Origin: a virus | Lineage: Duplodnaviria; Caudoviricetes | DNA length: 35,703 nucleotides | Strand: one strand, 5' to 3' | IMG/VR virus record: IMGVR_UViG_3300009634_000230 | Location: 1-35,703 of that record | Shown: positions 3,527 to 31,430 of the stretch, one piece after another | How positions within the stretch are numbered: position 1 is the stretch's first letter | Layout: each line of letters starts with the position of its first letter | Position numbers and translations under genes: made by a program | The notes under the pieces: model-generated | Told to the model about the DNA's origin: nothing | The model's database searches: none | Seen by the model: the letters and a program-made list of their open reading frames with translations, nothing else

Positions 3527-3534
3527 TATCCTCT

Positions 3535-12387: not shown

Positions 12388-13035
12388 TTATTTCACCAAA
12401 ACGAGTTTAGAACAGATGAGAAAATCAGAACTTGAATTCGAGTCGTTCAGACCTTGAATGGCGAGCAGATTATGGCCCACAGTCAGCTGATTGACATAGG
12501 TCGAGATGTCATAGGTATTCCACGCGGAGGTTGTCTCAGCTGATGCCTGCGTAGCCAATGAGTTCCACACCGGTGTAGTTGGCTTATTGATATATTTTAC
12601 CAGAGTGCCGTTGATGTAAGCTGCAAATCCATCATCATATCGCATCAGAAGGGAGAGTCCGGTTACGGCATCGAGAGAGGTTATTTCAAAGGGTATTCTG
12701 ATATAACAGGTGCCGTTTATGTTGTGCATAGTTGTAAGAACATCGTTGCCAATCCATTGGTAATAGGCATCACAGGGGTCTGTGCAATAGCCGACTCCGC
12801 CGTATCCGGCCGTCCAGGCGCTGTCATTGTAGTCGTAATTAGTCCTCCAGTCGGTCCCGATATCCCCTGTCGGGACAAGTATTTTCTTATATTTCATTTC
12901 CGTAACTACGATGTTTGGGTCGTTGGTATCGCTTACAGTGGTTGCCTTACCCCAAAAGCAGGAAAGCGGATATGATGATGTTGTCCCCGCCAGAACCAGA
13001 ACAAAAAACAAAGACATGAGCAGTTTCTTCATCAT
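12388..13035 (-). CDS. Signal-peptide protein with galactose-binding-like jelly-roll domain
   Basis: MMKKLLMSLFFVLVLAGTTSS signal; YIRIPF...LLMRYDDGFAAYINGT...GHNLLAIQGLN...SSDFL motif. Confidence 0.7.
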   Translation of the reverse strand: MMKKLLMSLFFVLVLAGTTSSYPLSCFWGKATTVSDTNDPNIVVTEMKYKKILVPTGDIGTDWRTNYDYNDSAWTAGYGGVGYCTDPCDAYYQWIGNDVLTTMHNINGTCYIRIPFEITSLDAVTGLSLLMRYDDGFAAYINGTLVKYINKPTTPVWNSLATQASAETTSAWNTYDISTYVNQLTVGHNLLAIQGLNDSNSSSDFLICSKLVLVK

Positions 13036-13116
13036 AGTATCCCGCACCAGTTCGGGCCTTTGGGTTTGTCCGGCCATAACCATTTTGTCAGTATCAAAAT
13101 TAGTCGCTTCATTACT

Positions 13117-15057
13117 TCACCACCCCACCAGAATTACAGAACTGTTTTGTTTCGGCGGTTGCCAAGCACCTGGTGTTGACTTGCCGCCATCGAGAGTGGG
13201 CACGGCATTTATACAAGGCGAACTCGGCAGCAAACTAAAATCATTAGTGTCTTTATTTCTGAATCGCGGGTCGGCTGAAATACTATTGACATCATTCAGG
13301 GGGAAATTAACTACGCCGTGATTTGCCCACGTCAGCCAATCCGCTTTCATAGTGGCTAAATCTGGAATTACTGTCGCTGTATTTGCCGTGAGTTCTATGT
13401 CTGCAAAACCAGAAGTGCCATTAACGTAGCAGTTGAAGTTGATATAGTTATCGCTTACTCCATAAACACCATACGAATCAGCATCCGTTCCAATGGCATA
13501 CGTAGCGCCAGCCCCATCAAAGATGTTGTTGTATATCTGGTTGTGGCTCTGATAAACAACTCCAAATCCTACATCATTCTGGCTGGACAGTCCGAAAGCA
13601 TAACTACCCGTCGAATGACAGGTGTTATTGAATACGTTGCAGTTTGATGCACCTTTCAGAAGTAAACTGCAAGGGCCATTCGCTATGTTATGGTGAACAT
13701 TTATCTTTTGTCCCTTAATAACAATCTGATAGTTGCCTCCCATAACCGTATCGTATGCGACTTCGCCCGACTGGACATTGTTGCCGACAATAACCGCGTG
13801 CTTGGCTTGTGCGCCTGATAGAGTAACTACATTATGTCTGATAACCGCATTGCCAATAGGGTCAGTAATCCCGCCGTCCAGGCCTATTTGTATGCCATAC
13901 GAACCCGCCGTTCCCATCGCAAGCGTGATTGTGTTATCAGCTACAAAGATATTGCTCCCTGTATTTTTCGTGCCGCTTACGCTAATAGCAGCGCCAGCCG
14001 AACCAAATGTCGAAGTGAATGTATTGCCGGTAATAATCACATTGTTTAAATCTGGGGCAGCACCAGCGGAATAATTAGCATTTATGGTTGGGTTTGTAGA
14101 ATTGGGATGAAATATATTGTTAGTGATTCTAACATTTTTAAGAACACTGGTATGGTCAAGCTGAATCAATGATATTGTACCAGCGGAAGATTCGGTAAAG
14201 GCGTTGCCATTAACGGTGAGTGAATTGACATTATAATCGGAAATAGCCATATTAACAGTGGAAAACGTCGGGTTGTTAGAGATATTTACATCCGGCAAAG
14301 GCGTTCCCGATGGATTAAGAAAAATAGTCGGTTTTGCCGAGGTATCTGTGATGCTATTGCCGGTAATAGTTATCGGCCCATTAACACCTGAAATCCAAAT
14401 TGCCCCAGCCGACGTGCCTGCCCCCGTGATAGTTGCGGTATTCCCTGTAAAAATAAGGCCATTCAATCCGACCATTTCTATGAGATAACCCGATACAGGG
14501 AGAGTTGAATTGGTAATGCTTAAAGACCTTGTTGGTGTAGCGTTACTGCCTCCGTGAAAAAAGCCTGAAGATGGAGCGCCATCAGAAGGATTGCCTAAAA
14601 TACAGTTATTAACAACACCGTTTACATCGCCACTGCCGAAATCTATCAAATCCCCAGGCGAAGGTTTGATATTCCTCAAGGTTAGATTTGTAAGTGTAAT
14701 CGTCCCCTTACTCCCGCTATCCCAATACATACAGTCGGACGCATTGAAATCCAGCACTACAAGAGTGGGGTCTGTATTTGCTTGGCCGTTATTCCAACCG
14801 TTAATCGTAAGAGCTTTCGACGTTGACCAGTAAAACTCCTTCGAAGTTGTTTCGGTATAAGTGCCTGGCTCAACCCGTATCTCGGCGGGAAATGTAACAG
14901 CACCAAGCGCGTGACCCACTGTTTTCCAGGCGTTAGTACCTTCGGTTGCACCAGTATTGGAATCGCTGCCATCTGCTTGGATGTAATAATAGTTGGTCGC
15001 CAACGCCTGCCCACAGACAAATAGAATCAACAGGATTGTAATTAGTTTATATCGCAT
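13117..15057 (-). CDS. Signal-peptide right-handed parallel beta-helix (pectin-lyase-like) protein
   Basis: Start at MRYKLITILLILFVCGQALA (RBS AGGAG); YYIQADGSDSNTG..AWKT; many ITGNT repeats; ADPRF..DFSLLPSSPCINA cap. Confidence 0.8.
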   Translation of the reverse strand: MRYKLITILLILFVCGQALATNYYYIQADGSDSNTGATEGTNAWKTVGHALGAVTFPAEIRVEPGTYTETTSKEFYWSTSKALTINGWNNGQANTDPTLVVLDFNASDCMYWDSGSKGTITLTNLTLRNIKPSPGDLIDFGSGDVNGVVNNCILGNPSDGAPSSGFFHGGSNATPTRSLSITNSTLPVSGYLIEMVGLNGLIFTGNTATITGAGTSAGAIWISGVNGPITITGNSITDTSAKPTIFLNPSGTPLPDVNISNNPTFSTVNMAISDYNVNSLTVNGNAFTESSAGTISLIQLDHTSVLKNVRITNNIFHPNSTNPTINANYSAGAAPDLNNVIITGNTFTSTFGSAGAAISVSGTKNTGSNIFVADNTITLAMGTAGSYGIQIGLDGGITDPIGNAVIRHNVVTLSGAQAKHAVIVGNNVQSGEVAYDTVMGGNYQIVIKGQKINVHHNIANGPCSLLLKGASNCNVFNNTCHSTGSYAFGLSSQNDVGFGVVYQSHNQIYNNIFDGAGATYAIGTDADSYGVYGVSDNYINFNCYVNGTSGFADIELTANTATVIPDLATMKADWLTWANHGVVNFPLNDVNSISADPRFRNKDTNDFSLLPSSPCINAVPTLDGGKSTPGAWQPPKQNSSVILVGW

Positions 15058-16342
15058 TGGCATCTGCTCCTGCATAATAAACGAATATCTTTTTGGGGGT
15101 TACAAACTGAACATCACAACTGCCAAAATTCGCACCAGTTCTCACTGCCGTTGCAATCGTTGTGCCGTTCACAACATCGATTACGGTACTATTGGGGTCA
15201 AAGTGAACAATAAAACCAAAGGCATCGTTGGTATCGCGTAGGGAGAAAAGCTGACCGATTCTCGCCGTATTGGTATCGTAAATGCCTATGTTAATATCTT
15301 TTGTTATGCCTGTGCAGGTAAACGTCCAGCGATTATTGCTGTCAACAAAATTAGTATCGGAAGTTATATTCAGCCAACGAACAGCGTTGACATCGCTCGC
15401 TGTCGCAAATCTGCTATTAGCATCAGTCCTGTCCACGACACGCAAGCCGTTGACATCGTTCGCCAAAGCACCGCCAGCAGCAGCTATCGCAGCACTATTT
15501 CCTGCTACCGCGCCTCCTGCGCCATCGCCCTTCAAAATAGAGGAGGTCATAGCAACTGGGCTATTGCTCAGAGAAATCACCGGATGACCTGTTGCTGTCC
15601 CTGCGGGCGAATAACTCCCGTTCGGGTCAGAGTTGGTTCTTGTCCAATACGCAGAGCCGGTCGTTGCTGGCCCAGTACTTATGCAATATCCCGGCAGGGA
15701 TGGGGCGCTCCATAACCAAAACAAAGAATCTGCCGTTCGATAAGTCGGCAAGCTGTTATAAGTGCCATTCTGATAGAGTTTTCCTGTTATATTAGGAGAA
15801 AGGGTATCTGTCGATGTTATGATGTTATAACTCACAAACCTGTTTGGGTCTGCGAACATGGCATTAACATCGTTCGGAGCAGAAGGAAGATAGCCAAGTG
15901 CAGCAGTTATATCAGCAGAAGTTGAAGGGGCAACATTACCATCACCATTAAAATGGGCAAGACCGATTATTGTTCCATTCGAGCCGTTGGGGTCAATGTG
16001 GAGGGCAATCGTATTGCTTTCGCCAGTCCTCGTATAATATGCAGGATAGTTTATATCGGATGCTATAAACTGGTGAGTCCCGCCTGAGCCATCCAAAGTA
16101 AATACGCTTGCCGTTGTTGGCCCGTTGACAAGTCCGCCTGCCGTATATTCCGGCATATAACCGGCCGAAAGTCCCGTAAGTCCGCCGCCTGTTATCTGGT
16201 TTTGCAGCCAGGCGTAAAAGGCCGGATTAGAGCAGGGGTCGCCCTGCATCATAGGCCATAATGGCGGCAGTTTTGCCGCCTGCGCCAATGAGCATAATAT
16301 CATCAGGATTATTATTGCAGCCGTTATAATTCTCTTAATCAT
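15047..16342 (-). CDS. Signal-peptide fibre-like protein, D-x-N rich
   Basis: MIKRIITAAIIILMILCSLAQA signal; ITAALGYLP and ILKGDGAGG motifs recalled from phage fibre shafts. Confidence 0.65.
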   Translation of the reverse strand: MIKRIITAAIIILMILCSLAQAAKLPPLWPMMQGDPCSNPAFYAWLQNQITGGGLTGLSAGYMPEYTAGGLVNGPTTASVFTLDGSGGTHQFIASDINYPAYYTRTGESNTIALHIDPNGSNGTIIGLAHFNGDGNVAPSTSADITAALGYLPSAPNDVNAMFADPNRFVSYNIITSTDTLSPNITGKLYQNGTYNSLPTYRTADSLFWLWSAPSLPGYCISTGPATTGSAYWTRTNSDPNGSYSPAGTATGHPVISLSNSPVAMTSSILKGDGAGGAVAGNSAAIAAAGGALANDVNGLRVVDRTDANSRFATASDVNAVRWLNITSDTNFVDSNNRWTFTCTGITKDINIGIYDTNTARIGQLFSLRDTNDAFGFIVHFDPNSTVIDVVNGTTIATAVRTGANFGSCDVQFVTPKKIFVYYAGADANAI

Positions 16343-16352
16343 ATTTACCTCA

Positions 16353-16447
16353 TTGAATTTAGAGTTTAGAATTTAGAATTTAGAAAATGATTCGGATTCA
16401 GTTCTTAATTCTAACTTCTCACTTCTCAATTCTTTAATTCTCACTTC
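16353..16447. repeat. Inverted heptamer arrays (gaattta / ttctcaa)
   Basis: (gaattta)4-like array faces (ttctaac/ttctcac/ttctcaa)n and fills the intergenic gap. Confidence 0.8.
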
Positions 16448-16450
16448 GTT

Positions 16451-17167
16451 TTATCCGCCGCTTGCGCCGGACAAAATGATGTAGATATGGTCTATGACCG
16501 TCCAGTTTGCATTATTGATAAAGATTCCGAAATATTCATAACCCGCGACCGGGAACACTAATTGCAGAATATCACCATAGGTTTCTGTGCCTGAATACCC
16601 GCCTTTATAGACGCCTAACGGCCACTGGTAACTGAGGGTCATTTCATCAGCCCATTTATAGTTCGGGTCCGCTACGGGCGCTGCGGCGGTTCCCCGCAGC
16701 GCAGCTCCCGAGTACGGGTTATTGCTGAGCTGGACGTTTCCGATTCCGACGGGTCCGGAAAATACCTTTTTGACGCCTCCGTATTTGCGGATGGCGAAGG
16801 CGTTGACGTCGAATGCCCCGGCGTTGGCATCGTTTGCCTTGTTGATTGCGTGCGCGAATATGGATACCTCGGCGAGCGCCCACTGGTTGGGCATCGCGAG
16901 CCATCTTCCGGTTCCTGTAACGGTCCCATCAGCCGTTCTGGTGTTGGCGATGACGTCTGCCCAGGTCTTTGTCCCGAAGGTCGGCTGCGTATCATTGGCG
17001 GTGATATCGATGATATAGAGGTAACCGAATTTGGCGTCCCCTATATAGGTGAGCTGGTTATAGGTGGTGAGCGCCTTATCATCCGCCATTGCCGATGCGA
17101 CCCAGAGGATGGCCAGCGCTGCAATAACGCCGGCGATGATGATTGTGATTTTGTTTATTCGTCTCAT
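16451..17167 (-). CDS. Signal-peptide hypothetical protein
   Basis: MRRINKITIIIAGVIAALAILWVASAMA signal with AxA cleavage site; RBS AAGGAG. Confidence 0.65.
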   Translation of the reverse strand: MRRINKITIIIAGVIAALAILWVASAMADDKALTTYNQLTYIGDAKFGYLYIIDITANDTQPTFGTKTWADVIANTRTADGTVTGTGRWLAMPNQWALAEVSIFAHAINKANDANAGAFDVNAFAIRKYGGVKKVFSGPVGIGNVQLSNNPYSGAALRGTAAAPVADPNYKWADEMTLSYQWPLGVYKGGYSGTETYGDILQLVFPVAGYEYFGIFINNANWTVIDHIYIILSGASGG

Positions 17168-17241
17168 ATTTTCTCCTTAGCCGCAGAGGGCATAGAGTTC
17201 ATAGAAAACAAAAAACAGTGTTAATCTGTGTTAATCCGTGT

Positions 17242-17523
17242 CTAAATATTTCCATGTCCAATCAGATACGCAATTGCCGCCACGATGGTTATTTTGGCAA
17301 TGTCAACGCCGGCTGCGGCCAGGGCATCTTTCCAGCTTTTTTTCGTTTCTTTATGTTCCTCGAGATGTTCTTCGAGCTCCCGGCATGGTCTTGTCGGCGC
17401 TTCAGGCATCAGTTCGAGTTTGGTGGCGATAGTTGCAACATCGGTTGCCATTGAACCAACCGATTTGACGAGTTCATCTATTCGGTTATGTATCCTGTTG
17501 AGGTCATCTTTATCCGGCGGCAT
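17242..17523 (-). CDS. Small coiled-coil protein with C-terminal TM helix
   Basis: RIHNRIDELVKSV heptads; ITIVAAIAYLIG TM. Start placed at MPPDKDD. Confidence 0.55.
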   Translation of the reverse strand: MPPDKDDLNRIHNRIDELVKSVGSMATDVATIATKLELMPEAPTRPCRELEEHLEEHKETKKSWKDALAAAGVDIAKITIVAAIAYLIGHGNI

Positions 17524-17582
17524 ATCATTGCGGCCAATGGCCGTCTCCAAATATCAATTATCAATCGCAATTCCGCAATTTC

Positions 17583-17631
17583 GTATCGGCATTGGGCCGG
17601 GCGGCGATATTTATCCCGGCCCTGCCGATAC
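17583..17631. terminator. Strong GC-rich stem-loop downstream of the head genes
   Basis: gtatcggca(tt)gggccggg pairs with cccggccctgccgatac (17 bp). No U-tract on the minus strand, so it may be an mRNA stabiliser or attenuator. Confidence 0.5.
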
Positions 17632-17688
17632 AGCGCAAACGTCTTTACTTTTTCAACTCATCGTCCCTTGTAGGGAAAGCGTTGCCTG

Positions 17689-18414
17689 CTACGCCCAGAT
17701 TCCGCGCATTTTCTGGATTTCCCAGCCGTTGCCCGCGATATCCGGGTGAATGATAATGTAATCCCAGTGTTTCGCCGTTGCCTTGGTATTGGTTCTGGTT
17801 GCATTGTCCACCCCGGCGATATCCGGCCCCATTATTTTGTCCGACGCATTTGGCTGAACGGTAATGAGCACCGCCGCATCCGCTCCGCCGTTGATAATCG
17901 CGATGGGTCCCAGCCCCGCCGCCGTCGCCGGCAGCGTGATTGTCTTGGCATCGACGGTCATGATAAATGCCTTGCCAACGTCCTGTATATCGAGCGTCTT
18001 GTTATCGATGAGCGTCTCGAAGGTAAAGCCCTCGAATACAGGGCTGTTCGGCATAAACTCATTGAGCTCGACGTATGCGACGGCATCCGTCGCCGCCATA
18101 GCCACCGTCAGCGAGCCAACGAGGAAGTCAGCCGCAGTTAGGTTCGTTGTCAATGCTCCCGTTCCGGCCGTCCCGCCGTAAGGGTCCCCATTCTCGTCCC
18201 AGCCAACCGGATCTCCTGTGCTTCCGGCAATCTGGGCCTTAACGATTTTTGCGATCCCTTCGACCAGTATCGCACCCTTCACATTCGCCTCGATATCGGT
18301 CACGCACAAACCAGCTCTTCCGCCCGACTGGACCATTTGGCCCGCCAGGCACGCCGAGGTTGGCGTATAGTCAATCATGTCTCCCTGCTGATATGCCATT
18401 GCTTCCGTGTTCAT
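17689..18414 (-). CDS. DUF2190-family capsid cement/decoration protein with C-terminal extension
   Basis: YQQGDMIDYTP..AGQMV..G..DIEANVKGA..EGI motif just after the capsid gene; extra TITLPATAAGL...GIWA domain. Confidence 0.8.
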   Translation of the reverse strand: MNTEAMAYQQGDMIDYTPTSACLAGQMVQSGGRAGLCVTDIEANVKGAILVEGIAKIVKAQIAGSTGDPVGWDENGDPYGGTAGTGALTTNLTAADFLVGSLTVAMAATDAVAYVELNEFMPNSPVFEGFTFETLIDNKTLDIQDVGKAFIMTVDAKTITLPATAAGLGPIAIINGGADAAVLITVQPNASDKIMGPDIAGVDNATRTNTKATAKHWDYIIIHPDIAGNGWEIQKMRGIWA

Positions 18415-18425
18415 AATTCGTTCCT

Positions 18426-18468
18426 TCCCGCCCTCGATGGTTGCCCCAGAGGCCTTCTATCGGGGGTC
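18426..18468. repeat. 43-bp dispersed direct repeat, copy 2
   Basis: 39/43 identity with 935-977; abuts the DUF2190 RBS. Confidence 0.85.
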
Positions 18469-18506
18469 AAATCTTAAATTTTAAATTCTTTGTTCAGCCA
18501 CAGAGT

Positions 18507-18731
18507 TTATGTCCGCGTAATCCGCCTACTGCGGAGAAGTTCGTGGCTACTTTTCACTGGTTCCGGTTCCGCTGATACAGGCGTCGCCAGCAGCTTATGG
18601 CAGTTAAAGCATTTCATCTCCCCCGGCTCATTTACTTTGCCGTGCCTTTCAGCATAGTGAAGTTTGTCGCCTTTTCGGACAAACTCCGTCTCTTGCCCGC
18701 ATTCACATTTCAAAATCAGGTTCTGTTCCAT
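18507..18731 (-). CDS. Small Zn-ribbon-like protein
   Basis: CECG...CFNC; start MEQNL after AGGA RBS. Confidence 0.55.
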   Translation of the reverse strand: MEQNLILKCECGQETEFVRKGDKLHYAERHGKVNEPGEMKCFNCHKLLATPVSAEPEPVKSSHELLRSRRITRT

Positions 18732-18790
18732 TTTTTGTTTCCTTTTTTTTAAAAATCTCAATACGAAACTGACAATCCACAATCGTTTAG

Positions 18791-20938
18791 TTACTGGTTG
18801 TTCTTCTGCATCCCGCGGAAGTCCAGCGCCTTGACGCCCACATCCAGATAAACGCGGTATGTCACGCCTAAAACATCGGCCGGCGAAGGAAGTTGCTCGA
18901 CTGTCGGCTGTTCGACGCCGTTGAGGAATCCGACCTCGATCGTATCGACTTCGCCGCCCCTGCCCGTAACGTACCAGGAAGTGGCCGAATACCCGCTAAA
19001 TGCGGAGTTCGACAATCTCGGCTCAGCGACAACCTGAAGATTATCATCCATCAGGGCGTTATAGTTGCCCCTGATGCTTTCAGTCGAAGGTGTCCCTGCG
19101 ATGACGATGGTTGTGCTGCGGGCAAGATTCATTGCCGTATATTTCAATTCAGGCGGAACAAGGATGACACGAGGCATGATTGTAATCTGGCGACCGGCCT
19201 TGTCTTTTTGCTTGATGAAGGCAGCGCATGCCGCCTGCAGAGTTGCCATCGTCAGTGCCGCACTGGTATTGAGGTTGAGGTGCGTTGTGGCGTAGAACAG
19301 CACTATTCCATCACTCATGGCGCCGTTGGCGAGCAGGTGCGTATATACGAGGTCCGAGGGCAGTTCTGCCGCCGCCCTGCCGAGCCGTTCGGGCGTCCGC
19401 GTGAATGCGCCGAGGTCATCGTTGATTATCTGCTGGCGGGTAATGCTGAACTTCTTGGCATAGGTGTCCAGTCGGTACTGTTCGTACTCTTCCTCTGCCC
19501 CGCTTTCTTTTATTTCTCCGCCGGCACCGACCTTCTCAAGCGAGCCGGTATCCGTCAGCCGGACGCGGGTCGAGAGTTTGAAGTCGGGCAATGTTCCGAT
19601 GGAGCACCAGTTCCGCCACGTGGCCGGCACAAAATTGTAGCCGCGCATAGCGCTTTTATTGGCGATTGCGCCGAGAATGAACGGCAGGGAGGCCGTCGAA
19701 AACGCCATACGGATTGTGTCTTCCCTGCCCAGCGGCACATCCCCGCCGTCGAGATTGATGGCGTACCGGCACATATCCAAGAGATTCATGTCCCTGTGCC
19801 TGCTTGCGACTTCTGCGCGTCGCTCGCCGTTTGTCTTGTCTTTCAGGATGGTATCCTCGAATCCAGCCCTGATGAGCATGGCGTCGATGATTATGTCCCT
19901 GCTGTCAACACCCTGTGAAATCACCAACCCTGGCCCTTTGACCTTTGGTCTGGCCTTGCGGATGTGTTCCAGGACAATCGTCCTGAACGCATCGACCGTC
20001 GTATCGCCATCGAGCGCCCTTTGAAGGACATCTGCCGGGACATCCTGACCGGCAAGCTCCCTGATGGTTGAGCACCTTAGCCGTTCGGCTGCAATCGCCT
20101 GCTGAGGGTCAATTGCCACGGTGGTCGCTGAAGATGTCCGCTGATTGTTATCAGCCTCAGCGGTCTTGGCCGGCTTCTTTGCCGGGTCGGACCGGGCGGT
20201 TTTGTCATCTGTTTCTGTGCCGTCGTCCGCCATCTTTTCGGCACGGGCCGTTTCGGCATCATAATCCTTTTGCAGCGATGCCCTCTGCTGCTCGCTCAGT
20301 TTGTCATAATCCAGACCTCTTGCAGCGAGCCACTGTTTGAACTTTTCCATTTGTGTATCCTTTCCCGCGTATTTACGCGACTTCGCCGCCGGGTCCGCCC
20401 CGATCGGACAAACACTATTTTCCTTCAGTTCCCATTCCAGTGAAATTCGTAAATCAATATCTGCGGATGCCTTATAATGAACGCCTTCGATGTCCGCCTC
20501 TTCGCCGGCGTTGATTATTACCGAACGTGTCACCTTGTATCCAATTGATTGGTCCCTCTGATGCTTTTCCTTCGCCAGCAACCAGGCATGTTCTGATAGC
20601 GGTGATGTACTATAATAATCACGGCCTATGATTTCCTCACCCACAATGTGCGCACCGCGAGCACTTCCTAACTGGCTCGAAACAGTTGACCGGTCGTGAG
20701 TATCCAGCAGAGGAACCTGATCGTGCAATATTCCACCTTTCAATACGAGTATTTCTTCAATTACGCTCCATGTTGCCATATCAAAGACACGTACCCGTGC
20801 AGATGTCGCGAAAACCGCCTCAATGGAGCGTGTCTTTTCGTCGAGGGTATCTAATCGCAGTGAATATATCCTGCATGTAAGTCCTGTATTATCCACAGCG
20901 TCCCTGTGAGTTAATCTGTTAATCAAATCCTTTTTCAT
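18791..20938 (-). CDS. Fused prohead protease-scaffold-major capsid protein
   Basis: N-terminal HK97-type protease (VPLLDTHDR, SIGY, ENSVCPIGADPAA); scaffold (AAERLRCSTI); Mu gpT-like capsid (ITRQQIINDDLGAF, DTIEVGFLNG, DFRGM). Confidence 0.92.
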   Translation of the reverse strand: MKKDLINRLTHRDAVDNTGLTCRIYSLRLDTLDEKTRSIEAVFATSARVRVFDMATWSVIEEILVLKGGILHDQVPLLDTHDRSTVSSQLGSARGAHIVGEEIIGRDYYSTSPLSEHAWLLAKEKHQRDQSIGYKVTRSVIINAGEEADIEGVHYKASADIDLRISLEWELKENSVCPIGADPAAKSRKYAGKDTQMEKFKQWLAARGLDYDKLSEQQRASLQKDYDAETARAEKMADDGTETDDKTARSDPAKKPAKTAEADNNQRTSSATTVAIDPQQAIAAERLRCSTIRELAGQDVPADVLQRALDGDTTVDAFRTIVLEHIRKARPKVKGPGLVISQGVDSRDIIIDAMLIRAGFEDTILKDKTNGERRAEVASRHRDMNLLDMCRYAINLDGGDVPLGREDTIRMAFSTASLPFILGAIANKSAMRGYNFVPATWRNWCSIGTLPDFKLSTRVRLTDTGSLEKVGAGGEIKESGAEEEYEQYRLDTYAKKFSITRQQIINDDLGAFTRTPERLGRAAAELPSDLVYTHLLANGAMSDGIVLFYATTHLNLNTSAALTMATLQAACAAFIKQKDKAGRQITIMPRVILVPPELKYTAMNLARSTTIVIAGTPSTESIRGNYNALMDDNLQVVAEPRLSNSAFSGYSATSWYVTGRGGEVDTIEVGFLNGVEQPTVEQLPSPADVLGVTYRVYLDVGVKALDFRGMQKNNQ

Positions 20939-20955
20939 TTCGCAACTCCATTACT

Positions 20956-21052
20956 CAAAGCAAAAAGCAGATAGCAAATAGTAAATATATTGATGCGGCC
21001 TTTGGCCGCTTCTTTATTTCTTTTTGCTTTTTACTTTTTTATTTTTACTATT
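20956..21052. repeat. Inverted heptamer arrays around a GCGGCC-ttt-GGCCGC hairpin
   Basis: Same design as 8478-8562. One arm encodes the portal C-terminus SKNKKVKSKKK. Confidence 0.75.
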
Positions 21053-22567
21053 GTTGTTGTTTGACTCATCCTGCAGGGCCGCCGCGACTGCCGCCGGCGA
21101 CATATTCTCAAAGGTAAGTCCCAGCGATTCGAGCAGGTCCTTTTCTTTTTTCCGTTGTTTGAATTCTCTCTCCCAGTCCTTGCCATCCTGTGCATATACC
21201 GCGGCATAAGTTGTTGAGCCGTTTCTAAGATTGATGTCTTTTTCGGTCGCATCTTTAACCGGGTCAACGTGCTCATCACCCGGCCAGAACCATGCGTAGG
21301 AAGGAACTTCCTGCGGCCAGTTATAATTGATGAGCGATTGTTCCCTGTACCAGGCATTTACTATCCTTGAAAGGACCGATTCTTCAATGTCGCCTCTTTT
21401 GGTATTGATGTATCTGTAAAATATCTGATGGTCCATTCTTCCCGATGCGTAGTTATAATCGGCGGAATTGGCCGCGGCGATATTGAAGGGCATGCATTTG
21501 GGTCTGGCTATCTCATTGAGTAACTCGCCTTTGAATTCCCCGTAACTTGCCGCCGGCTGTTCGGGTTTAAACTGGAACGCCTTTCCCCCCGGCGGGAATG
21601 TCAGGACTGCGTTTCTTGCAAGTTCTATTTCATCCATCGCCTCATATGATGCGCTACCATCCGGTTCCTGTTCCATCACAGCCGAAATATCAGCTGCCGT
21701 CTCCGCCGCCTGCACCGTGGCCAGTGTAAATCGGCGCAGATAAGCGAACAGAGGCAGTGATGGCGTAAATTGAGGAACGCCTCGGGTCTGGCCCGGTCTG
21801 TCCTGTTCATAATAATGAATCATATAATCGGCAGGTATTGTCTTAAATGCGCCTACCGCCAGGACAAAGGTGGCGCCGGGATGCCTGTCCAGGACATAAT
21901 ACTGCACCGGCCTGCCATCCTCATCCAGCTCGATACCGTCCCGCAGTTTTTCATCGATTATTCCGCCCGGCCTCATCCACGGTGTTGCTATTCTGTCCGC
22001 CTCGATCGCGGAAAGCCGCAATGCCGCCTCATTTTTTCGCGGCTTGGGTGTGCTGGTCAGCAGTATAAAACCCTCACCTGAGGCATCCTGTTCCAGTGCA
22101 CAGGTTTGTCTTAAAATCATTGTCAGTGACAACCGGCCTGTCAGGTCGCAATTTTCGGCCCATGCCACAAAGGCATCTTCCATTTCACGGTCTAAATCCG
22201 GATTGTCCGACTGAAATTGAATGCGCGGCCCTGTCCCTATAAGATAGGTTGCGAATGTCTCTGATATTCCTTTTGCGTACGGATTATTGCGGATTTCGTA
22301 GCGTGCCCGGTTTCGCAACGTCCGCAGGTCCCAAAGGATTGTCGAGTCGGCGTCCCTGCCATCGGCCTTCAGCCAGTGCTCAGAGTTATATTTGTTCGTC
22401 TGCGCTGCATCGTATCCTCCGCCGATATATAGAGGCGCCACTCTTTTGGTATTTACCCTTGTCCTCCGCGATTCTGAGAGCATCCTCGGTTCCGAAACAG
22501 GTGCAGTTTTTCTGCTTTTCCGTCCTCCATCCTCAGTCATCCGTCTTCCATTCGCAGGCGCTATCAT
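21014..22567 (-). CDS. Portal protein, lambda family
   Basis: LRNRARYEIRNNPYAKG, DGIELDEDGRPVQYYV, RPGQTRGVP, NYASGR and VDPVKD motifs. Confidence 0.95.
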   Translation of the reverse strand: MIAPANGRRMTEDGGRKSRKTAPVSEPRMLSESRRTRVNTKRVAPLYIGGGYDAAQTNKYNSEHWLKADGRDADSTILWDLRTLRNRARYEIRNNPYAKGISETFATYLIGTGPRIQFQSDNPDLDREMEDAFVAWAENCDLTGRLSLTMILRQTCALEQDASGEGFILLTSTPKPRKNEAALRLSAIEADRIATPWMRPGGIIDEKLRDGIELDEDGRPVQYYVLDRHPGATFVLAVGAFKTIPADYMIHYYEQDRPGQTRGVPQFTPSLPLFAYLRRFTLATVQAAETAADISAVMEQEPDGSASYEAMDEIELARNAVLTFPPGGKAFQFKPEQPAASYGEFKGELLNEIARPKCMPFNIAAANSADYNYASGRMDHQIFYRYINTKRGDIEESVLSRIVNAWYREQSLINYNWPQEVPSYAWFWPGDEHVDPVKDATEKDINLRNGSTTYAAVYAQDGKDWEREFKQRKKEKDLLESLGLTFENMSPAAVAAALQDESNNNNSKNKKVKSKKK

Positions 22568-22791
22568 CGCGGGCTCCCGTTTTTCATGAACGCAATGTTC
22601 GGCCTTCCGCCCCTGGCTTTTATCGATGCAAGATTAGCGTAATATTTTCTCGCGGCGATGATATCATCGAGATTTCTGACTGTTACGGTCCTGTTGAACA
22701 TTCTGCCGCCGACCTGGATAGTCAGCGGGTAAGCCACCTGTGATGCGATGGCCGCATCGAGAACCTCAATGATTGCCAGGTAATCTGCCAT
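22564..22791 (-). CDS. Head-to-tail joining protein gpW-like
   Basis: 75 aa just upstream of the portal with ATGA overlap; IQVGGR..TV..LDDI pattern. Confidence 0.7.
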   Translation of the reverse strand: MADYLAIIEVLDAAIASQVAYPLTIQVGGRMFNRTVTVRNLDDIIAARKYYANLASIKARGGRPNIAFMKNGSPR

Positions 22792-22797
22792 ATCCGC

Positions 22798-22867
22798 AGA
22801 ATCGGTGACTCCTTAACTTTCGACAAGGGAAATCCGGCTCAGGAGAGAATTATTACTACCGGTAGTA
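22798..22867 (-). promoter_or_regulatory. Candidate late promoter with upstream 14-bp palindrome
   Basis: TACTACCGGTAGTA at 22854-22867; TTGTCG-17bp-GATTCT, then 6 nt to the gpW ATG. Confidence 0.5.
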
Positions 22868-22904
22868 CAAAATCTGATTTTCGCAGGTTAAAAACCTCGT
22901 GGGA

Positions 22905-23120
22905 TTACTTTTCTATCACTTCTTTTGTCCTTACCCTCCGCCCGCAATAGCGGCAGATCATATATCTTCGAATAGCCCCGGGAATTTTTTTCACGTTGAG
23001 CACCTCCCACGACCGGCCATCCTCATCCTTGAAGTCCGCGCATCCGCATTTGGGACAGCGAATCCCAACGATGGGCATCTGCGATTCGGTCGATATTTTT
23101 GTTTTTTTATCCGTGTCCAT
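22905..23120 (-). CDS. Zn-ribbon protein (Ogr/NrdR-like), possible late activator
   Basis: CPKCG...IRRYMICRYCGRRVRTKE. Confidence 0.65.
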   Translation of the reverse strand: MDTDKKTKISTESQMPIVGIRCPKCGCADFKDEDGRSWEVLNVKKIPGAIRRYMICRYCGRRVRTKEVIEK

Positions 23121-23142
23121 CCGTGGAACCTATTGGTTAATT

Positions 23143-25098
23143 TCACCCTTCTTTTTTCTGCCTTTGTATCTCCGACAATTTCACCGTCGCCGCTTTCATC
23201 GCCCCCGGCTTTAAATACTGTATTCCCTTATAAAACCCCGCCGCCGCGGCATATACCCGCAGGTCCAGCGAGTGCGTCTGTGCCCCGTTGAATACCGGCT
23301 GCCAGATATATTTATACTGGCCGGATCGTTTATCGATGACTTTGACGAGTTTTTCATTGGTGAATTCCGTAAAAAAGTAGCTCGGAATTTCCGCGTATGT
23401 CTGCATCAATGGCGGCGCAATCACTTTGAGTTTCCCTTCCTCTTCAGGGTCTTCTGCCACCGTCGGTTCCGCCCAGGCCGTAACGAGGTTTTTGAAGTAA
23501 TGCGTGTCGATGTGCATAAGTTGCATGCCGCGGTACCACGCCCTGGTGTGCCGTCGTTTCCTTATGTTCGGCTCGATTGCCGCCTCTAATTCCGTCAGCC
23601 GCAGCGGCGTGTTCAGCGGTCCCTGCTCGCCCATAATCGGCAGGCTGAATCCCGGTCTGACCCGGCAATGTTCATAGACATCATCCGGCTCAAATTTGGA
23701 ATCCTCAAACGAGCATGAGACAATAAGCCACGGTCTTTTATCGTTTGGCGTCCCGTCCGACCACGGGTACGGTGAATTTATTATCACTTCATCGTATTCC
23801 TTCCAGCTCGCGGCGAAGCCGGTATTTATTACGTAATTTTTCATCCCAATCGCAAATCCGGCTACCTCGTAATCGATCCGGACGACCCCTCTTTGTGATT
23901 TGTGATAATCAGCGCTTGCAACGAGCAGTATGCAGTCGGGCGGCACGGTCCCGCGCGAGAATGTCCCCGTATTTTTCTTCACGTCCTCGGCCCGTAATTG
24001 TTTTCCGAGTTTCTTGTGTATTGTTCCCCGGATTGAGTTGTCGAAATCCATCCTTGCCCCCTGCATTATTCCCTCTTCGGTATTTGCCTCGAACCAGGCG
24101 GCCATAATCTCCGGCCAATGCATGAACGGGCTTATAAGCGCCTCGTAGTTATATCCTGATATTCTTTTTGTCTGCGTCGGCTTGCCGGAAGTATTTCCAT
24201 CGGAATCCATTTTCATCCCTTCCGGCAACCATAAGCCCGACGCGACCAATTTGGGTTTTTCAATCTCTTCGATTTTATGTCCGCAGACCTCGCATTCATA
24301 CCAGACGTCTTTTTTTGCAAGGATTTCATCCGGCTTCCGCAACTGTTTGGGCAGATGGAGGTTCTCGAATACCCATATCCTGTATTCCCCGCAGCGGGGG
24401 CACGGAATGTAATATTTGTTCTTGTTCGATTTCTCCCAGTAAACCCAGGTATATCCCCACTCGGTTGTGGGCGTGCAGCTAATCACAAATTTGCGGTCCC
24501 AGTAGGTAGTCGCCCTTTTCACCGCGAGCGCGATGGGGTTGGCCTCTCTTCCGGCAAAGGGAGGATATTTGTCCGGCTCGCGGAAAATCACATACCGCAC
24601 CGACCGTTCCGCCAGTCCCGCCGGGCTTCCCGATGCCGTGAACATAATATCCATCCGGTCCAGCTTGAAAGTATCGCCCTGCAGTTGCCGCGGGCCGCCT
24701 ATTATATGGCGGGCAAGATGCGGTGAATCGGTTATCATCTGTTTGATTCTCTTCTGCGAGACATACGGGATGTCGGCATCCCTCGGCACGACAATCAGGC
24801 AGTCGCCCGGGTCCTGGTCGATTGCGAAGCCGAGCATGTTCTCTTCTATCGTCGATTTTGCCGATTGCGCTGGCGCCATATTGACCACCCATTCGACCTC
24901 CGGGTCGCAGAATGCGTTTTGTATTTCAACCGCATAGGGCGTCAGCGATGATTTGTACTGGCCGGGAAACGCCGACCGTTCCGGCATCTTGCGGTATTTA
25001 TCCGCCAGTTCGGTCACGGTGAGCTTCTCCGGACTGCGCCAGGCCTGCCGTTCTTTTTCAGACCAGGTTTCGATATGATTGCGAATGGCAATTATCAT
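23143..25098 (-). CDS. terL: Terminase large subunit (GpA family)
   Basis: TPYAVEI, Walker A variant AQSAKST, EPDKYP, SCTPT, CPRCG..CEVCG and HSLDLRVYA motifs. Confidence 0.95.
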   Translation of the reverse strand: MIIAIRNHIETWSEKERQAWRSPEKLTVTELADKYRKMPERSAFPGQYKSSLTPYAVEIQNAFCDPEVEWVVNMAPAQSAKSTIEENMLGFAIDQDPGDCLIVVPRDADIPYVSQKRIKQMITDSPHLARHIIGGPRQLQGDTFKLDRMDIMFTASGSPAGLAERSVRYVIFREPDKYPPFAGREANPIALAVKRATTYWDRKFVISCTPTTEWGYTWVYWEKSNKNKYYIPCPRCGEYRIWVFENLHLPKQLRKPDEILAKKDVWYECEVCGHKIEEIEKPKLVASGLWLPEGMKMDSDGNTSGKPTQTKRISGYNYEALISPFMHWPEIMAAWFEANTEEGIMQGARMDFDNSIRGTIHKKLGKQLRAEDVKKNTGTFSRGTVPPDCILLVASADYHKSQRGVVRIDYEVAGFAIGMKNYVINTGFAASWKEYDEVIINSPYPWSDGTPNDKRPWLIVSCSFEDSKFEPDDVYEHCRVRPGFSLPIMGEQGPLNTPLRLTELEAAIEPNIRKRRHTRAWYRGMQLMHIDTHYFKNLVTAWAEPTVAEDPEEEGKLKVIAPPLMQTYAEIPSYFFTEFTNEKLVKVIDKRSGQYKYIWQPVFNGAQTHSLDLRVYAAAAGFYKGIQYLKPGAMKAATVKLSEIQRQKKEG

Positions 25099-25652
25099 TT
25101 ATTGTTCTCTGTGCCTTTTGCGGCTTGTTTCTTTTCAGCAACAAAGAGGTCACAAATCTCTTTTGTCGCCGTATTCACGATTGACTGGAGCAGTTTGAGG
25201 TCTCCCCCGGCCGCTCGCAGCAGTGGCGCAAGGTTTCTGCCCAGTCCGCCTAATTTTCTCCGTACCGTTATAATCTGCCTGATATTTTTTTTTTCAACAT
25301 CTTCTTTGCTTATAAGCAGCCCCTGTTTTTCCTTCAGTTCCAGCTCTAACAGTTGCGCCTTTGTCTGCTTAATATCGGCGGCTGATATTTGTTCCCGCTG
25401 TTTGTGTGGATTGATAGTCGCCCCTTCGCTGTCTTTGAACAGTTTCAGGTCGCTTTTCCGGTATGTTTTTGTGCGGTCCCGCAGCGACCAGGGCAGTCCT
25501 TTTTTCTGCCAGCGCTGGATTGTTTTTTCATCGACGTCGATGAACTTCGCAGCGGCTTTTTGCCCGACGACAATATCATCATCGATGGCGGCAGCAGCAT
25601 CTGATTTCTGATTTATGATTTCTGATTTATGATTTTTAATATTATCAACCAT
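25095..25652 (-). CDS. terS: Terminase small subunit (Nu1-like)
   Basis: HTH QKAAAKFIDVDEKTIQRWQKKGLP; KAQLLELELKEKQGLLI; overlaps the terL start. Confidence 0.85.
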   Translation of the reverse strand: MVDNIKNHKSEIINQKSDAAAAIDDDIVVGQKAAAKFIDVDEKTIQRWQKKGLPWSLRDRTKTYRKSDLKLFKDSEGATINPHKQREQISAADIKQTKAQLLELELKEKQGLLISKEDVEKKNIRQIITVRRKLGGLGRNLAPLLRAAGGDLKLLQSIVNTATKEICDLFVAEKKQAAKGTENNK

Positions 25653-25731
25653 CCGTAACAATTGTCGATTGCCGATTGCTGATTGACGATTTTATTTGGA
25701 ATCGACATTCGACATTCGCCAATCGTCAATT
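25600..25731. repeat. Heptamer arrays (tctgatt)n and inverted (gncgatt)n/(aatcgnc)n
   Basis: Five tctgatt/tatgatt units inside the terS 5' end, then a hairpin-forming pair of arrays upstream. Confidence 0.75.
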
Positions 25732-25733
25732 AC

Positions 25734-25967
25734 TTAATTTGGCAGTCCGATATGATATTTATGCAGAACGCCCCGCAATTTTTCGTTTTTCTTCATCAGG
25801 CAAAGCAGCTCTGCGGCGTTCAGCTGGTTTTGCTTATCCTGTTCGACCTTCATTCTCGCCATCATTGTCTTATGTATTTTTTCCTGCCTCAAAAACAGCC
25901 AGGCATAAAGAACGCCGAAAGCCACAAGAATTATCCCGAACAACCCGCATAACTGATTTTCTGTCAT
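25734..25967 (-). CDS. Small single-pass membrane protein with coiled coil
   Basis: GLFGIILVAFGVLYAWLFL TM; RBS AAGGA. Confidence 0.55.
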   Translation of the reverse strand: MTENQLCGLFGIILVAFGVLYAWLFLRQEKIHKTMMARMKVEQDKQNQLNAAELLCLMKKNEKLRGVLHKYHIGLPN

Positions 25968-26035
25968 TATTTTAATCCTTTATTTTTGACACTGATTAAC
26001 ACTGTTTTTACCGTGTTAATCCGTGAAATCCGTGT

Positions 26036-26266
26036 CTAAATATCTTCATCTTCTTCGATAATTTTGTCGAACTGTCCTTTTTTGAGCGCCGCAAAACCGA
26101 GCAGAAAGCATCTCCAGTACCAGCCATCTTCGCCGTGCGTCAGTTCATAAAGTCGTTGTTCGTTTATGCCCGATATTTCGCACAGTTCTCCCAGCGAGAC
26201 CTGTCTAAACGTCGTCCCGTAAACAACATCTGCGGCCGGGTTTTGTCTGTTTGTCCCTGTTTTCAT
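26036..26266 (-). CDS. Hypothetical protein
   Basis: 76 aa in operon context; RBS GAGG. Confidence 0.5.
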   Translation of the reverse strand: MKTGTNRQNPAADVVYGTTFRQVSLGELCEISGINEQRLYELTHGEDGWYWRCFLLGFAALKKGQFDKIIEEDEDI

Positions 26267-26273
26267 TGATGCC

Positions 26274-26933
26274 TCAAATCAATTTGCTTTGCACGGTGTA
26301 TCCCACCTTTATCATCATCAGCAGGTTCGCCATCGGAGACCATTTACGATGTCTGCAATAGCAAGAATGCCATTTTATCCAGTCAGTAACATCGAATTCA
26401 TTGCTGTTCCAATTTGCCTTGCCTTCGCAGGCAGCGTAGTTGCACGCCTCGGAGCAGTACCATTTCTTTTTGTCCTGGATTTCCCCGCCCGGCAGTATCA
26501 ATTTGAACAGCACGCCCTTATAATCGTAGGGCCTGCCGAGAATTGATTTTGCGGCATCGAACATTGCCTGTTCGACTGCATCGGGTACATTTACCGTGAT
26601 TTTCAGCCAGTGTTCGGGATGTTTGAGGATTTCCAGTGATGGCGCAAGCCGGACACCTGTGAATCTGCCTCGTGTCGCCGATGAAAAGCAAATGCCCTTG
26701 GAGCATCCGCCAATTTTACCTTTGTTTATCAAGAGGTCTTCTGCCGGTTTGTCTGCTCGATGGTTCCAGAATCTGTCGCAGAATTCGATTTCCTCGTGGC
26801 TGATGAGCAGTTTCTTATTGCCGAACTTCAGGCAGTCCGACTTATTTGCGAAGTAGCCGATTTCACCGATCGCCCTGCTTACCCATGAATCCCCCGGTCC
26901 CGATTTGTAAAATAAAAACCGTATCTTTTTCAT
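26274..26933 (-). CDS. Permuted papain-like NlpC/P60 hydrolase, candidate endolysin
   Basis: His before Cys: SHEEIEF ... GRPYDYKGV ... KKWYCSE; located with holin- and spanin-like genes. Confidence 0.7.
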   Translation of the reverse strand: MKKIRFLFYKSGPGDSWVSRAIGEIGYFANKSDCLKFGNKKLLISHEEIEFCDRFWNHRADKPAEDLLINKGKIGGCSKGICFSSATRGRFTGVRLAPSLEILKHPEHWLKITVNVPDAVEQAMFDAAKSILGRPYDYKGVLFKLILPGGEIQDKKKWYCSEACNYAACEGKANWNSNEFDVTDWIKWHSCYCRHRKWSPMANLLMMIKVGYTVQSKLI

Positions 26934-27055
26934 ATTCGACTCCGTTCAGCTTTTTACCATTTGCTTTTTGCTTTTTACTTTTCTTCGCACCCCATGGGGC
27001 GGGTTTTCTCATCCATAAGTCCGCCCGCCCCGTTTTCAGCCGGCTCCGCCGGTTA

Positions 27056-27535
27056 TCAGATCCAGCCGTTCTTTTTCGCCAGCGCATAACCTGCCAGGAG
27101 CAGGGAGATTATGCCTGTCCCGGTCATCGCCTTCGGCCATTCGCTTATCAACTGTTTGGTTTGTCCGGTCATTGTGTAGGTATTAAAGTACGCCTGCGCA
27201 ATCTGATTAGCGAACGCGGCTGAATTGGCATCGACCAGCCCTCCCGACTGCGCCATAGTGATTATCTGCTGGAACGCCGCCATCTTGTTCGGGTCTTTCG
27301 ACAGCTCGAGCAGTCCCGACTGCAGGCCGGATATCTGTTCCTGGGTCAGTGTGACCTGCTGATTAAGCTGTTGGATTGTCTGATTGGCATCTACAATCGC
27401 CTGATTGTACCCGACGAGGAGGCCTCCCACTCCGCTGGCGCCTGTTGTCAGGGCGGATGTTGTGCATCCGGCCATCGCCAGCATCATCGCCGCCAGCAGC
27501 ACTACAATAAGAATCTTTGTCCTGTGCATCTTCAT
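27056..27535 (-). CDS. Lipoprotein with C-terminal TM helix (u-spanin-like topology)
   Basis: Lipobox MAGC after a hydrophobic signal; Q-rich coiled coil; GIISLLLAGYALA TM. Confidence 0.6.
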   Translation of the reverse strand: MKMHRTKILIVVLLAAMMLAMAGCTTSALTTGASGVGGLLVGYNQAIVDANQTIQQLNQQVTLTQEQISGLQSGLLELSKDPNKMAAFQQIITMAQSGGLVDANSAAFANQIAQAYFNTYTMTGQTKQLISEWPKAMTGTGIISLLLAGYALAKKNGWI

Positions 27536-27544
27536 TTCCTTTCA

Positions 27545-27787
27545 TTAAAGGTTGATATGGAAGAGCGTCAAAACCGTTTTGACGTAATTACTGATAACGT
27601 CGAAAATTTTGTCATCTTCCTGCGAGGGTGTGAGCTTAACAATCGCATGGATCAGGCCGTAAGCAGGAGGAATAATGGTTACGAATAAAACCCAGTGCAT
27701 ATAAAGCCAGCCGCCGGTGATCCCGAAGAGGCCAAGCGTATTCGGGTCCGCGATGTTCATGTCTGCGATTCCAAGTATGATGTTCAT
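27545..27787 (-). CDS. Holin-like membrane protein
   Basis: 79 aa hydrophobic protein; AIVKLTPSQEDDKI motif recalled from small phage holin-like proteins. Confidence 0.6.
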   Translation of the reverse strand: MNIILGIADMNIADPNTLGLFGITGGWLYMHWVLFVTIIPPAYGLIHAIVKLTPSQEDDKIFDVISNYVKTVLTLFHINL

Positions 27788-27839: not shown

Positions 27840-28184
27840 TCACCATTTCCGTTTTTCTAAATAGCCGACTGGCTTGCCTGTTTGAATCGCATAATCAATT
27901 TCGCTCCGCGTGCTTTGACCGATGTAGCCGCCGACATTCAACACAAAAACCTCATCAGCAAGGTCAATTTTTCTCTTATGAACCTCATCGACCAGTTCTT
28001 TGACGCCTTCTATGTCCCCGATATGTGGGCCTTTGAAATAAGAATCGGGCAAAGCGCACCAACTAAGAACAATCGCCCCTTGTTTGGTTAATTCCCATTG
28101 CAAAATTAGCATCTGTTCTGTAAAACGCGTAGAACCGCACAAGCAAATTGTTTTGGGAAAGCCGTCTGGTTTTTCAATTTTCAT
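27840..28184 (-). CDS. Nucleoside deoxyribosyltransferase-like (DUF4406-like) protein
   Basis: ICLCGSTRF ... HKRKIDLADEVFVLNVGGYIGQSTRSEIDYA. Confidence 0.7.
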   Translation of the reverse strand: MKIEKPDGFPKTICLCGSTRFTEQMLILQWELTKQGAIVLSWCALPDSYFKGPHIGDIEGVKELVDEVHKRKIDLADEVFVLNVGGYIGQSTRSEIDYAIQTGKPVGYLEKRKW

Positions 28185-31385: not shown

Positions 31386-31430
31386 AATTCTTTCCTTTCT
31401 CAATTCTAAATTCTAAATTCTTAATTATTT

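Follow-up and report, generated by a model that had tools for sequence, protein, structure and literature searches.

The general O-glycosylation system of Bacteroidota uses the motif D-(S/T)-(A/I/L/V/M/T), PglB of Campylobacter excludes proline at position -1 of its sequon, and in mycobacteriophages phage-encoded glycosyltransferases are said to have been proposed to act on the capsid in virion glycosylation. In the accessible parts of the papers that describe it, Campylobacter PglB, an oligosaccharyltransferase (OST), uses the sequon D/E-x-N-x-S/T (PMC7226087, PMC8342417, PMC4894442), recognising the -2 acid by R331 and the +2 hydroxyl by WWD (PMC7226087); OSTs exclude proline at +1 (PMC8342417), and natural relaxed PglBs loosen -2 while keeping +2 (PMC4894442). 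Here we describe a motif, D-x-N, that is enriched in the predicted exported proteins of a tailed phage, studied in a 35,703-nucleotide stretch of DNA (IMG/VR record IMGVR_UViG_3300009634_000230; "the window" throughout), and in those of its planctomycete host. The motif shares with PglB, as described in those parts, the acid at -2 and the restriction to predicted exported proteins; proline is also rare at +1, a trend that cytoplasmic D-x-N shows as well. The motif differs in that serine/threonine at +2 is at background, proline is favoured at -1, glutamate serves only in E-P-N, D-P-C is enriched and no STT3 was detected in the host; the case is the opposite of the natural relaxed PglBs. Like the Bacteroidota motif, it is short, led by aspartate and enriched across the secretome of one lineage, but its third residue is asparagine or cysteine, in place of serine or threonine at position two (in the host, DS occurs 162 times against 136.6 expected, 1.19, and DT 119 against 144.8, 0.82). 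Mycobacteriophages (PMC11256854) have in common with our phage tailed particles that possibly carry glycans, whereas here the capsid lacks the motif signal, no glycosyltransferase family was matched in the window in Pfam/PHROG scans, and it is predicted exported proteins that serve as targets.

For every open reading frame (ORF), expected D-x-N counts were derived from its own composition, with 5000 residue shuffles per ORF. Pooled over seven ORFs predicted to be exported or membrane-bound (five signal-peptide late genes that lie inside the head-tail operon by gene order, a lipoprotein and a single-transmembrane (TM) protein; Table 1), the motif occurs 39 times against 8.7 expected, and 23 times against 6.6 when 15047-16342 is left out. 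The remaining 37 window ORFs hold 22 against 23.1; they include three short ORFs called signal-peptide-bearing by our rule (400-822, 32426-32743 and 34815-35024; no sites, at most 0.14 expected in each). In 15047-16342, 16 of 26 aspartates lie in D-x-N where 2.1 are expected (p 2e-4, the lowest value this test can give). The fractions for the other six are 8 of 32 (13117-15075; 3.5 expected), 4 of 16 (12388-13083; 1.0), 3 of 13 (16451-17167; 0.9), 3 of 11 (5097-6035; 0.8), 3 of 3 (27056-27535; 0.15) and 2 of 5 (27545-27787; 0.3), where both N-terminal aspartates lie in the motif. As for the internal controls, the capsid protein has 3 of 56 where 1.9 are expected, and both leaderless tail-end proteins are at chance (3 against 2.65 in the 798-residue protein, 1 against 2.0 in that of 506 residues). 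The original prediction, which had proposed from hand counts that D-x-N marks the exported phage proteins, was accurate to within one residue, including 15047-16342, the lipoprotein and the N-terminal aspartates of 27545-27787; its D-x-N numbers hold, while two aspartate totals need correcting (16, not 15, in 12388-13083; 56, not 55, in the capsid). It also rightly noted DPC in two signal-peptide proteins (15047-16342 and 12388-13083) and the paucity of serine/threonine at +2 (3 of the 16 sites in 15047-16342). The name holin that it gave to 27545-27787 found no backing in Pfam or PHROG.

The window terminase is 100% identical to that of locus L005, and the alignment of loci L005, L153 and L154 to the window at 99.5-100% identifies the window as a prophage at ~62.6-98.3 kb of contig C11 in genome G001. 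This genome is a metagenome-assembled genome (MAG), possibly incomplete, of the planctomycete order Sedimentisphaerales, which we take to belong to Phycisphaerae, the class named in the original prediction. About 1.2 of its 2.9 Mb (about 41%) was read directly in three batches of ~400 kb each, the second picked around GT-C genes and not at random, giving 891 genes with a codon-score caller; the remaining ~59% was covered by family, protein and pattern searches only. Across the three separate samples, the observed/expected (O/E) ratio of D-x-N was 2.01, 1.88 and 2.09 in predicted exported proteins and 0.87, 0.97 and 0.90 in cytoplasmic ones, which pools to 572/286.4 (O/E 2.00) in 201 exported versus 323/353.5 in 488 cytoplasmic proteins. 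Among 1600 spaced residue pairs in the first sample, D-x-N ranked top. Both export classes are enriched, the lipoprotein-like (58/32.4, 32 proteins) as well as other exported proteins (514/254.0, 169 proteins), and single-anchor membrane proteins are intermediate (107/75.7). In a pseudopilin-like operon on the contig that holds the prophage (L155:239-7066, G001 C11), the members that come later and face the periplasm have 4, 4 and 14 sites against 0.8, 1.8 and 5.6 expected. That the motif marks predicted exported proteins was thus upheld by observed/expected ratios in phage and host alike.

A compositional, DNA-level or repeat artefact is a highly improbable source of this signal. D-x-N matches are confined to the coding frame (16, 0 and 3 by frame in 15047-16342, none on its reverse strand), and both aspartate codons and both asparagine codons are used, which places the signal at the protein level. 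Some sites do stem from tandem repeats or paralogs, namely those in a BamA linker and in two paralogs among eight proteins of genome G199 (see below), but correction for the composition of each protein, named in the original prediction as a possible refuter, leaves the enrichment intact in phage and host, it recurs in the three separate host samples, and D[PASV]N, EPN or DPC is carried by 110 of 201 exported versus 102 of 488 cytoplasmic host proteins.

The enrichment in exported host proteins is driven by DPN (84/13.9), DAN (100/23.9), DSN (50/19.0) and DVN (53/18.8), together with EPN (56/10.0) and DPC (22/2.7), which lie outside D-x-N; DCN (12/3.2), DIN (36/17.2), DTN (34/19.8) and DGN (36/25.7) follow. 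The corresponding cytoplasmic counts are 21/14.3 for DPN, 19/15.4 for EPN, 4/5.8 for DPC and 40/24.9 for DIN. Glutamate and cysteine variants without proline are not enriched in exported proteins (EAN 14/17.8, DAC 4/4.4), nor are swaps at the third position (DPS 18/16.0, DPT 15/16.5, DPQ 10/9.0); D-x-C, suggested earlier as a variant, therefore stands as D-P-C and does not extend beyond proline. Because cysteine and asparagine codons are two bases apart, and DPS, DPT and DPD, each a single step away, show no enrichment, DPC is unlikely to be mutational leakage from DPN. With serine/threonine following at +2 in 79 of 572 sites (13.8% versus a background of 13.1%) and DPN the most enriched D-x-N, the motif is as unlike the PglB sequon as originally claimed. 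Proline follows at +1 in only 4 of 339 motif asparagines versus 242 of 4029 (6.0%) others and is doubled at +2, and many E-P-N sites sit in Ala/Pro/Lys linkers and at termini.

These counts bear directly on a structural explanation, under which selection in secreted proteins rich in beta structure would have favoured the sites as Asx turns, beta-strand i/i+2 pairs or loops that bind Ca. D-P-N-G commonly forms a turn, the host proteins richest in the motif are large, beta-rich surface proteins, and two site columns are conserved in a jelly-roll phage family described below. However, equally good turn-formers are not enriched (DPD 17/16.4, NPN 14/13.3, SPN 15/14.3, TPN 10/14.9; 0.7-1.05 of expectation), the EF-hand-type spacing D-x-N-x-D-G, on which a Ca-binding refuter of the original prediction could be judged, is found at only 11 of 572 sites, and both D-x-D (282/324.3; 0.87) and the mirror triplet N-x-D (0.90) remain below expectation. 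Sites also fill unstructured linkers, leaderless homologs of 5097-6035 are without them, and seven other Phycisphaerae show no pooled enrichment; we consider the structural explanation improbable.

Comparison of the phage proteins with their homologs revealed how the motif relates to export. A search with 5097-6035 gave 155 homologs, of which 120 were listed and scored; among these listed matches, 16 have a predicted leader (D-x-N 37/17.5) and 104 of 120 are leaderless (81/122.8). Within the short, 290-residue subfamily, the ten leader-bearing members contain about three times the expected number of sites (32/10.0), whereas their 22 leaderless kin show no excess (19/24.8). At one alignment column, nine of the ten rows with a leader, drawn from three separate branches, show D-V-N, and 0 of the 22 leaderless ones do (one has D-D-N). 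On a quick tree of 57 rows, the leader label changes seven times, with at least five changes forced by supported branches, and in one sister pair P0019 has a leader and 5 sites while P0022 has neither. A leaderless homolog occupies the equivalent gene position in phage L350. The comparison supports the view that phage proteins acquire D-x-N sites together with the signal peptide. Blocks of genes with predicted Sec signal peptides lie in the head-tail operons of several related phages (window 5097-6035 and 12388-17167; L001:13898-15247; L002:11341-14537; L401:7532-12100), and the N-terminus of L001:14342-15247 resembles, as judged by eye, that of the leaderless L004:16514-17392. No viral locus was found for P0133.

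The family of 16451-17167 comprises 27 representatives, of which 22 have a predicted leader and together contain 75 D-x-N against 16.9 expected and 14 N-x-D; three members are siteless. Two aligned sites retain their D and N with P, A, S, T or V between them (15/26 and 20/26 rows), and a homolog is encoded shortly after the capsid gene of phage L401. The predicted model of 16451-17167 (pLDDT 84.5) is a jelly-roll beta-sandwich, with best fold matches to 6i56, 6i5o, 9in6 chain c and 9hz8 chain G (Z 7.4, 7.3, 7.2 and 6.0; root-mean-square deviation 2.8-4.5; 93-109 aligned residues; 9-12% identity). All of these come from phages or prophages, being the jelly-roll proteins PBSX XepA/SPbeta YomS and accessory proteins of phage capsids, but Z values under 8 are below the level of kinship and may reflect only a common beta-sandwich, so no function follows for 16451-17167; Foldseek gave no PDB match for this jelly-roll at E<=0.001. 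For 15047-16342, we found no homolog of similar length, its Atlas matches were all <0.9 with weak phage-fibre-like features only, and its single-sequence fold model was unusable (pLDDT 34).

Eleven other genomes were sampled at 20-140 kb each, and pools were formed after the per-genome counts were known. G199 is positive (79/39.8), in a sample of eight proteins of which two are paralogs, and G157, G012 and G181 together are enriched in DPN only (17/2.2; DAN 6/4.2). The other seven (G047, G096, G100, G019, G009, G121 and G044) are negative when pooled (DPN 9/6.9, DAN 6/12.3), the samples from G044 and G121 being tiny at 1 and 4 exported proteins. D-x-N enrichment is lineage-limited within Phycisphaerae, in agreement, for part of the class, with the DPN-rich secretomes there that the original prediction mentions. 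DNA-level proxies were used solely for picking genomes: DPN/NPD across 201 class genomes (median 0.70) is noisy and GC-dependent, and D[AP]N/N[AP]D across 121 order genomes is unimodal, from 0.34 to 1.33 (median 0.64). A BamA tree of G001 and 13 other genomes picked for their high ratio puts 13 of the 14 into one supported clade, with G009 outside it. The N-terminal linker of BamA has 9 sites in G001, 3 in G276, whose BamA core is 95% identical, and 14 in G280, in tandem repeats, a spread that points to fast gain of sites in an apparently dispensable linker. A scan of viral contigs for DPNDPN returned unrelated matches only.

The identity of a modifying enzyme was approached through searches of the host and its relatives. 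The original prediction had suggested, as a possibility, a divergent OST, to be sought as an STT3/PglB homolog with an altered WWDxG motif; none was detected in G001, a possibly incomplete MAG, and alignment A1, run over 121 order genomes and the 891 G001 proteins, detected none either. PF02516, searched in G001 and 201 class genomes, found nothing in G001 and clear STT3 in 2 of the 201, and PF21436 and PF22627 had no match in G001. Two STT3-like proteins with a changed WWDYG motif do exist elsewhere in the class (Table 1), and the one from G047 (L009), used as a query in five genomes, gave no candidate that tracks the trait. A narrower form of our preferred explanation, and a part of it, would be an STT3-fold OST without the WWD pocket, encoded in the unread part of G001 and too divergent for sequence models. 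Aspartate or glutamate at -2 without any preference at +2 is what loss of that pocket would be expected to produce from the account in the accessible part of PMC7226087, proteins with altered WWDYG (L009, L012) occur in the class, and only ~41% of G001 was read directly; but four Pfam models, L009, the DPY19-like protein and the pattern G-x-x-D-H-H, each searched against the whole of G001, found none, nor did A1 in the 121 order genomes, and G047 has L009 yet is not motif-enriched. We regard this form as possible, though doubtful.

Other GT-C families were examined as well. PF08409 gave no trait-tracking candidate and a TMEM260-like match was absent from G001. PF10034 found a single DPY19-like gene, in G181 only; PF11028 was not found in G001, yet is present in the low-ratio G044 and G121; PF04932 has orthologs in motif-positive and motif-negative genomes alike; and G-x-x-D-H-H has 18 matches in G001 with no membrane protein among them. 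G001 has at least 19 PMT_2-type GT-C matches, of which ten are TMTC-like with TPR tails. The TMTC-like GT-C+TPR type was rejected as the enzyme, since 110 of 201 class genomes, some of low ratio among them, have a match whereas the DPN-positive G012 has none. The ten loci of this expansion (e.g. L153:10037-12247, L156, L157, L162) are often tandem pairs, and one lies ~7 kb off the left edge of the window. The GT-C gene L165:4232-6010 was likewise rejected, as it occurs in 21 of 201 class genomes, among them the negative G100, and was not found in G157 or G012.

Taken together, the signal is directional, is limited to a lineage, appears with gain of a leader, multiplies in linkers and tolerates few swaps, and in these respects it behaves as a periplasmic recognition sequon. 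We consider it likely that D-x-N, together with E-P-N and D-P-C, is such a sequon, read in the periplasm. As to chemistry, we lean towards glycosylation by a periplasm-facing host enzyme, with a glycan on the third residue, asparagine or sometimes cysteine. Such an enzyme would read an acid at -2 and, at -1, a residue of small size (P>A>V,S), with no serine/threonine at +2; a PglB-like enzyme that kept its reading of the -2 acid and lost that of the +2 hydroxyl would yield this grammar. The catalyst may be a lipid-donor GT-C enzyme beyond the reach of STT3 sequence models, for which asparagine and cysteine would be exchangeable nucleophiles. The five late-operon phage proteins would be exported and then modified by the host, after which their products would either be added to the particle when the cell lyses, giving it a host-like coat, or act on the cell surface; the two predicted lysis proteins, facing the periplasm, would be modified as passengers. 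In an alternative assignment, aspartate may be the acceptor and asparagine or cysteine at +2 the residue that is read.

An extracytoplasmic factor could also read the same motif with an outcome other than a glycan: a different adduct (phospho-polyol, acyl or amine), transamidation or cross-linking at asparagine or cysteine, or binding by a chaperone or a surface lattice. Sequon statistics are blind to chemistry, no OST was found in G001 or the 121 order genomes, and the replacement of asparagine by cysteine and not by serine, threonine or glutamine is unlike OSTs as described in the accessible parts of the cited papers. On the other hand, the acid rule at -2 and low proline at +1 fit OST geometry (PMC7226087 and PMC8342417, in those parts), other glycosylation targets in bacteria look much like the tandem sites in low-complexity linkers (PMC12645811, accessible part), and the host is rich in GT-C genes; a non-glycan outcome seems to us rather unlikely.

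Several observations weigh against a glycosylated periplasmic sequon. Export was called by a rule of our own, which asks for a basic n-region and a hydrophobic h-region, and not by SignalP. Enrichment in the host is uneven, and dropping the 30 richest of 134 proteins lowers O/E to 1.08; low proline at +1 is seen in cytoplasmic D-x-N as well (9/323). Among the phages, the jelly-roll model of 16451-17167 puts two of its three sites in or at the start of strands and one in a loop, six long-form leader-bearing homologs of 5097-6035 have 0-1 sites each, three signal-peptide proteins of the related phages L001/L002 have 2/0.7, 1/1.5 and 5/4.1, and in phage L401 a 798-residue signal-peptide protein has no sites against 2.7 expected while the capsid has 6 against 2.0. 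G009 has the top DNA proxy, yet its nine sampled exported proteins reach only 15/10.7, and BamA is not enriched over the 13 high-ratio genomes (27/21.7, 14 of the sites from one genome). Finally, searches of G001 with STT3, AglB-core, PglB-core and Dpy19 models were all negative, and no tested GT-C family follows the presence of the motif across genomes.

The features discussed above are located in Table 1. Nearly all window genes are encoded on the minus strand, and Pfam/PHROG scans and gene order show a prophage module of lambda-like type, with an integrase, a ParB-like protein, a methylase, small and large (gpA) terminase subunits, a lambda-type portal, the protease-capsid fusion, head decoration, neck and tape measure proteins and an RCC1-repeat tail-end protein.

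Table 1. Coordinates of the motif-bearing proteins and controls in the window, and of enzyme-like genes in Phycisphaerae genomes.
Feature	Location	Strand	Remarks
431-aa predicted Sec protein, orphan	15047..16342	-	16 D-x-N (residues 96-427), one DPC
652-aa predicted Sec protein, parallel beta-helix-like repeats	13117..15075	-	repeats read from sequence; no Pfam or PHROG match
231-aa predicted Sec protein	12388..13083	-	4 D-x-N, one DPC
238-aa predicted Sec protein, predicted jelly-roll beta-sandwich	16451..17167	-	two genes after head-decoration gene
312-aa predicted Sec protein	5097..6035	-	two genes after tape-measure gene
159-aa predicted lipoprotein (lipobox AMAG-C), C-terminal hydrophobic stretch	27056..27535	-	from sequence
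80-aa single-TM protein	27545..27787	-	position alone suggests a holin; N-terminal segment, predicted to face the periplasm, has DMN and DPN
Protease-capsid fusion, cytoplasmic control	18791..20938	-	Pfam/PHROG scans
Two leaderless Asp/Asn-rich tail-end proteins, internal controls	1130..5055	-	RCC1-repeat 798 aa (1130-3526); 506 aa
Canonical OSTs, WWDYG / WWDWG	L007:1312-3741 (G032), AglB-like; L008:244-2304 (G021), PglB-like		the 2/201 class genomes
STT3-like, WWDYG changed to EEGEG / DEGEG	L009:1177-3276 (G047); L012:1105-3306 (G004)		keep D-P-D-D, D-H-Q/H and I-x-E-L-Q-P motifs; both outside the order
Bacterial DPY19-like protein, TPR tail	L325:1141-3720 (G181)		Pfam Dpy19 E 3.7e-18; not found in 4 other genomes searched
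Three GT-C genes and GT2-like gene, cluster	L165:622-10593 (G001 C3)		L165:4232-6010 without Pfam match

A 29-bp direct repeat (93%) on either side of the prophage, at L153:17972-18000 and L154:4630-4658 (G001 C11, ~61.0 and 100.6 kb), is a candidate attL/attR pair, and a second integrase gene lies at L153:18008-19069. The probable lysis cassette at 25734-27787 consists of the single-TM protein, the lipoprotein, a 219-residue protein matching phrog_1128 and a 77-residue TM protein; the layout of the lipoprotein suggests a unimolecular-spanin-like protein. A 133-nt inverted repeat, with arms at 28141-28273 and 33658-33790 that are 99% complementary and 5.4 kb apart, breaks a C5 methylase ORF, and small indels near both arms in the host assembly point to either an invertible segment or assembly ambiguity. 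Short repeats pair 932-977 with 18423-18468, 11504-11537 with 32620-32653 and 16356-16386 with 31396-31426, and further ones lie at 8471-8570, 20954-21060, 26949-26990, 29673-29743 and 34243-34284; several occupy intergenic gaps, and some are built of 7-nt periodic A/T-rich units.

A literature search, outside which most subscription papers fall, returned no paper on the D-x-N motif or on planctomycete N-glycosylation. In the widest form of our reading, which we consider unlikely, part of Phycisphaerae would glycosylate proteins generally by a system that falls outside the STT3 sequence family; by recognising D-x-N, E-P-N and D-P-C, it would place N- and S-linked glycans on one class of site, and tailed phages would repeatedly have given virion accessory proteins both signal peptide and sequon, adding host-glycosylated parts to the particle at lysis. 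In the accessible parts of PMC7226087, PMC8342417 and PMC4894442, OST-type N-glycosylation depends on serine/threonine at +2; if our reading is true, the secretome-wide D-x-N, E-P-N and D-P-C would constitute a new sequon grammar, with asparagine and cysteine as possibly exchangeable acceptors, and an enzyme for such a sequon would be useful in glycoengineering. The motif list supplies exact peptides for open-search metaproteomics. The repeated joint gain of signal peptide and host motif in a virion-operon family is evolutionary evidence for periplasmic passage and host dressing of tailed-phage parts, and such passage would bear on particle assembly and on receptor or defence evasion.

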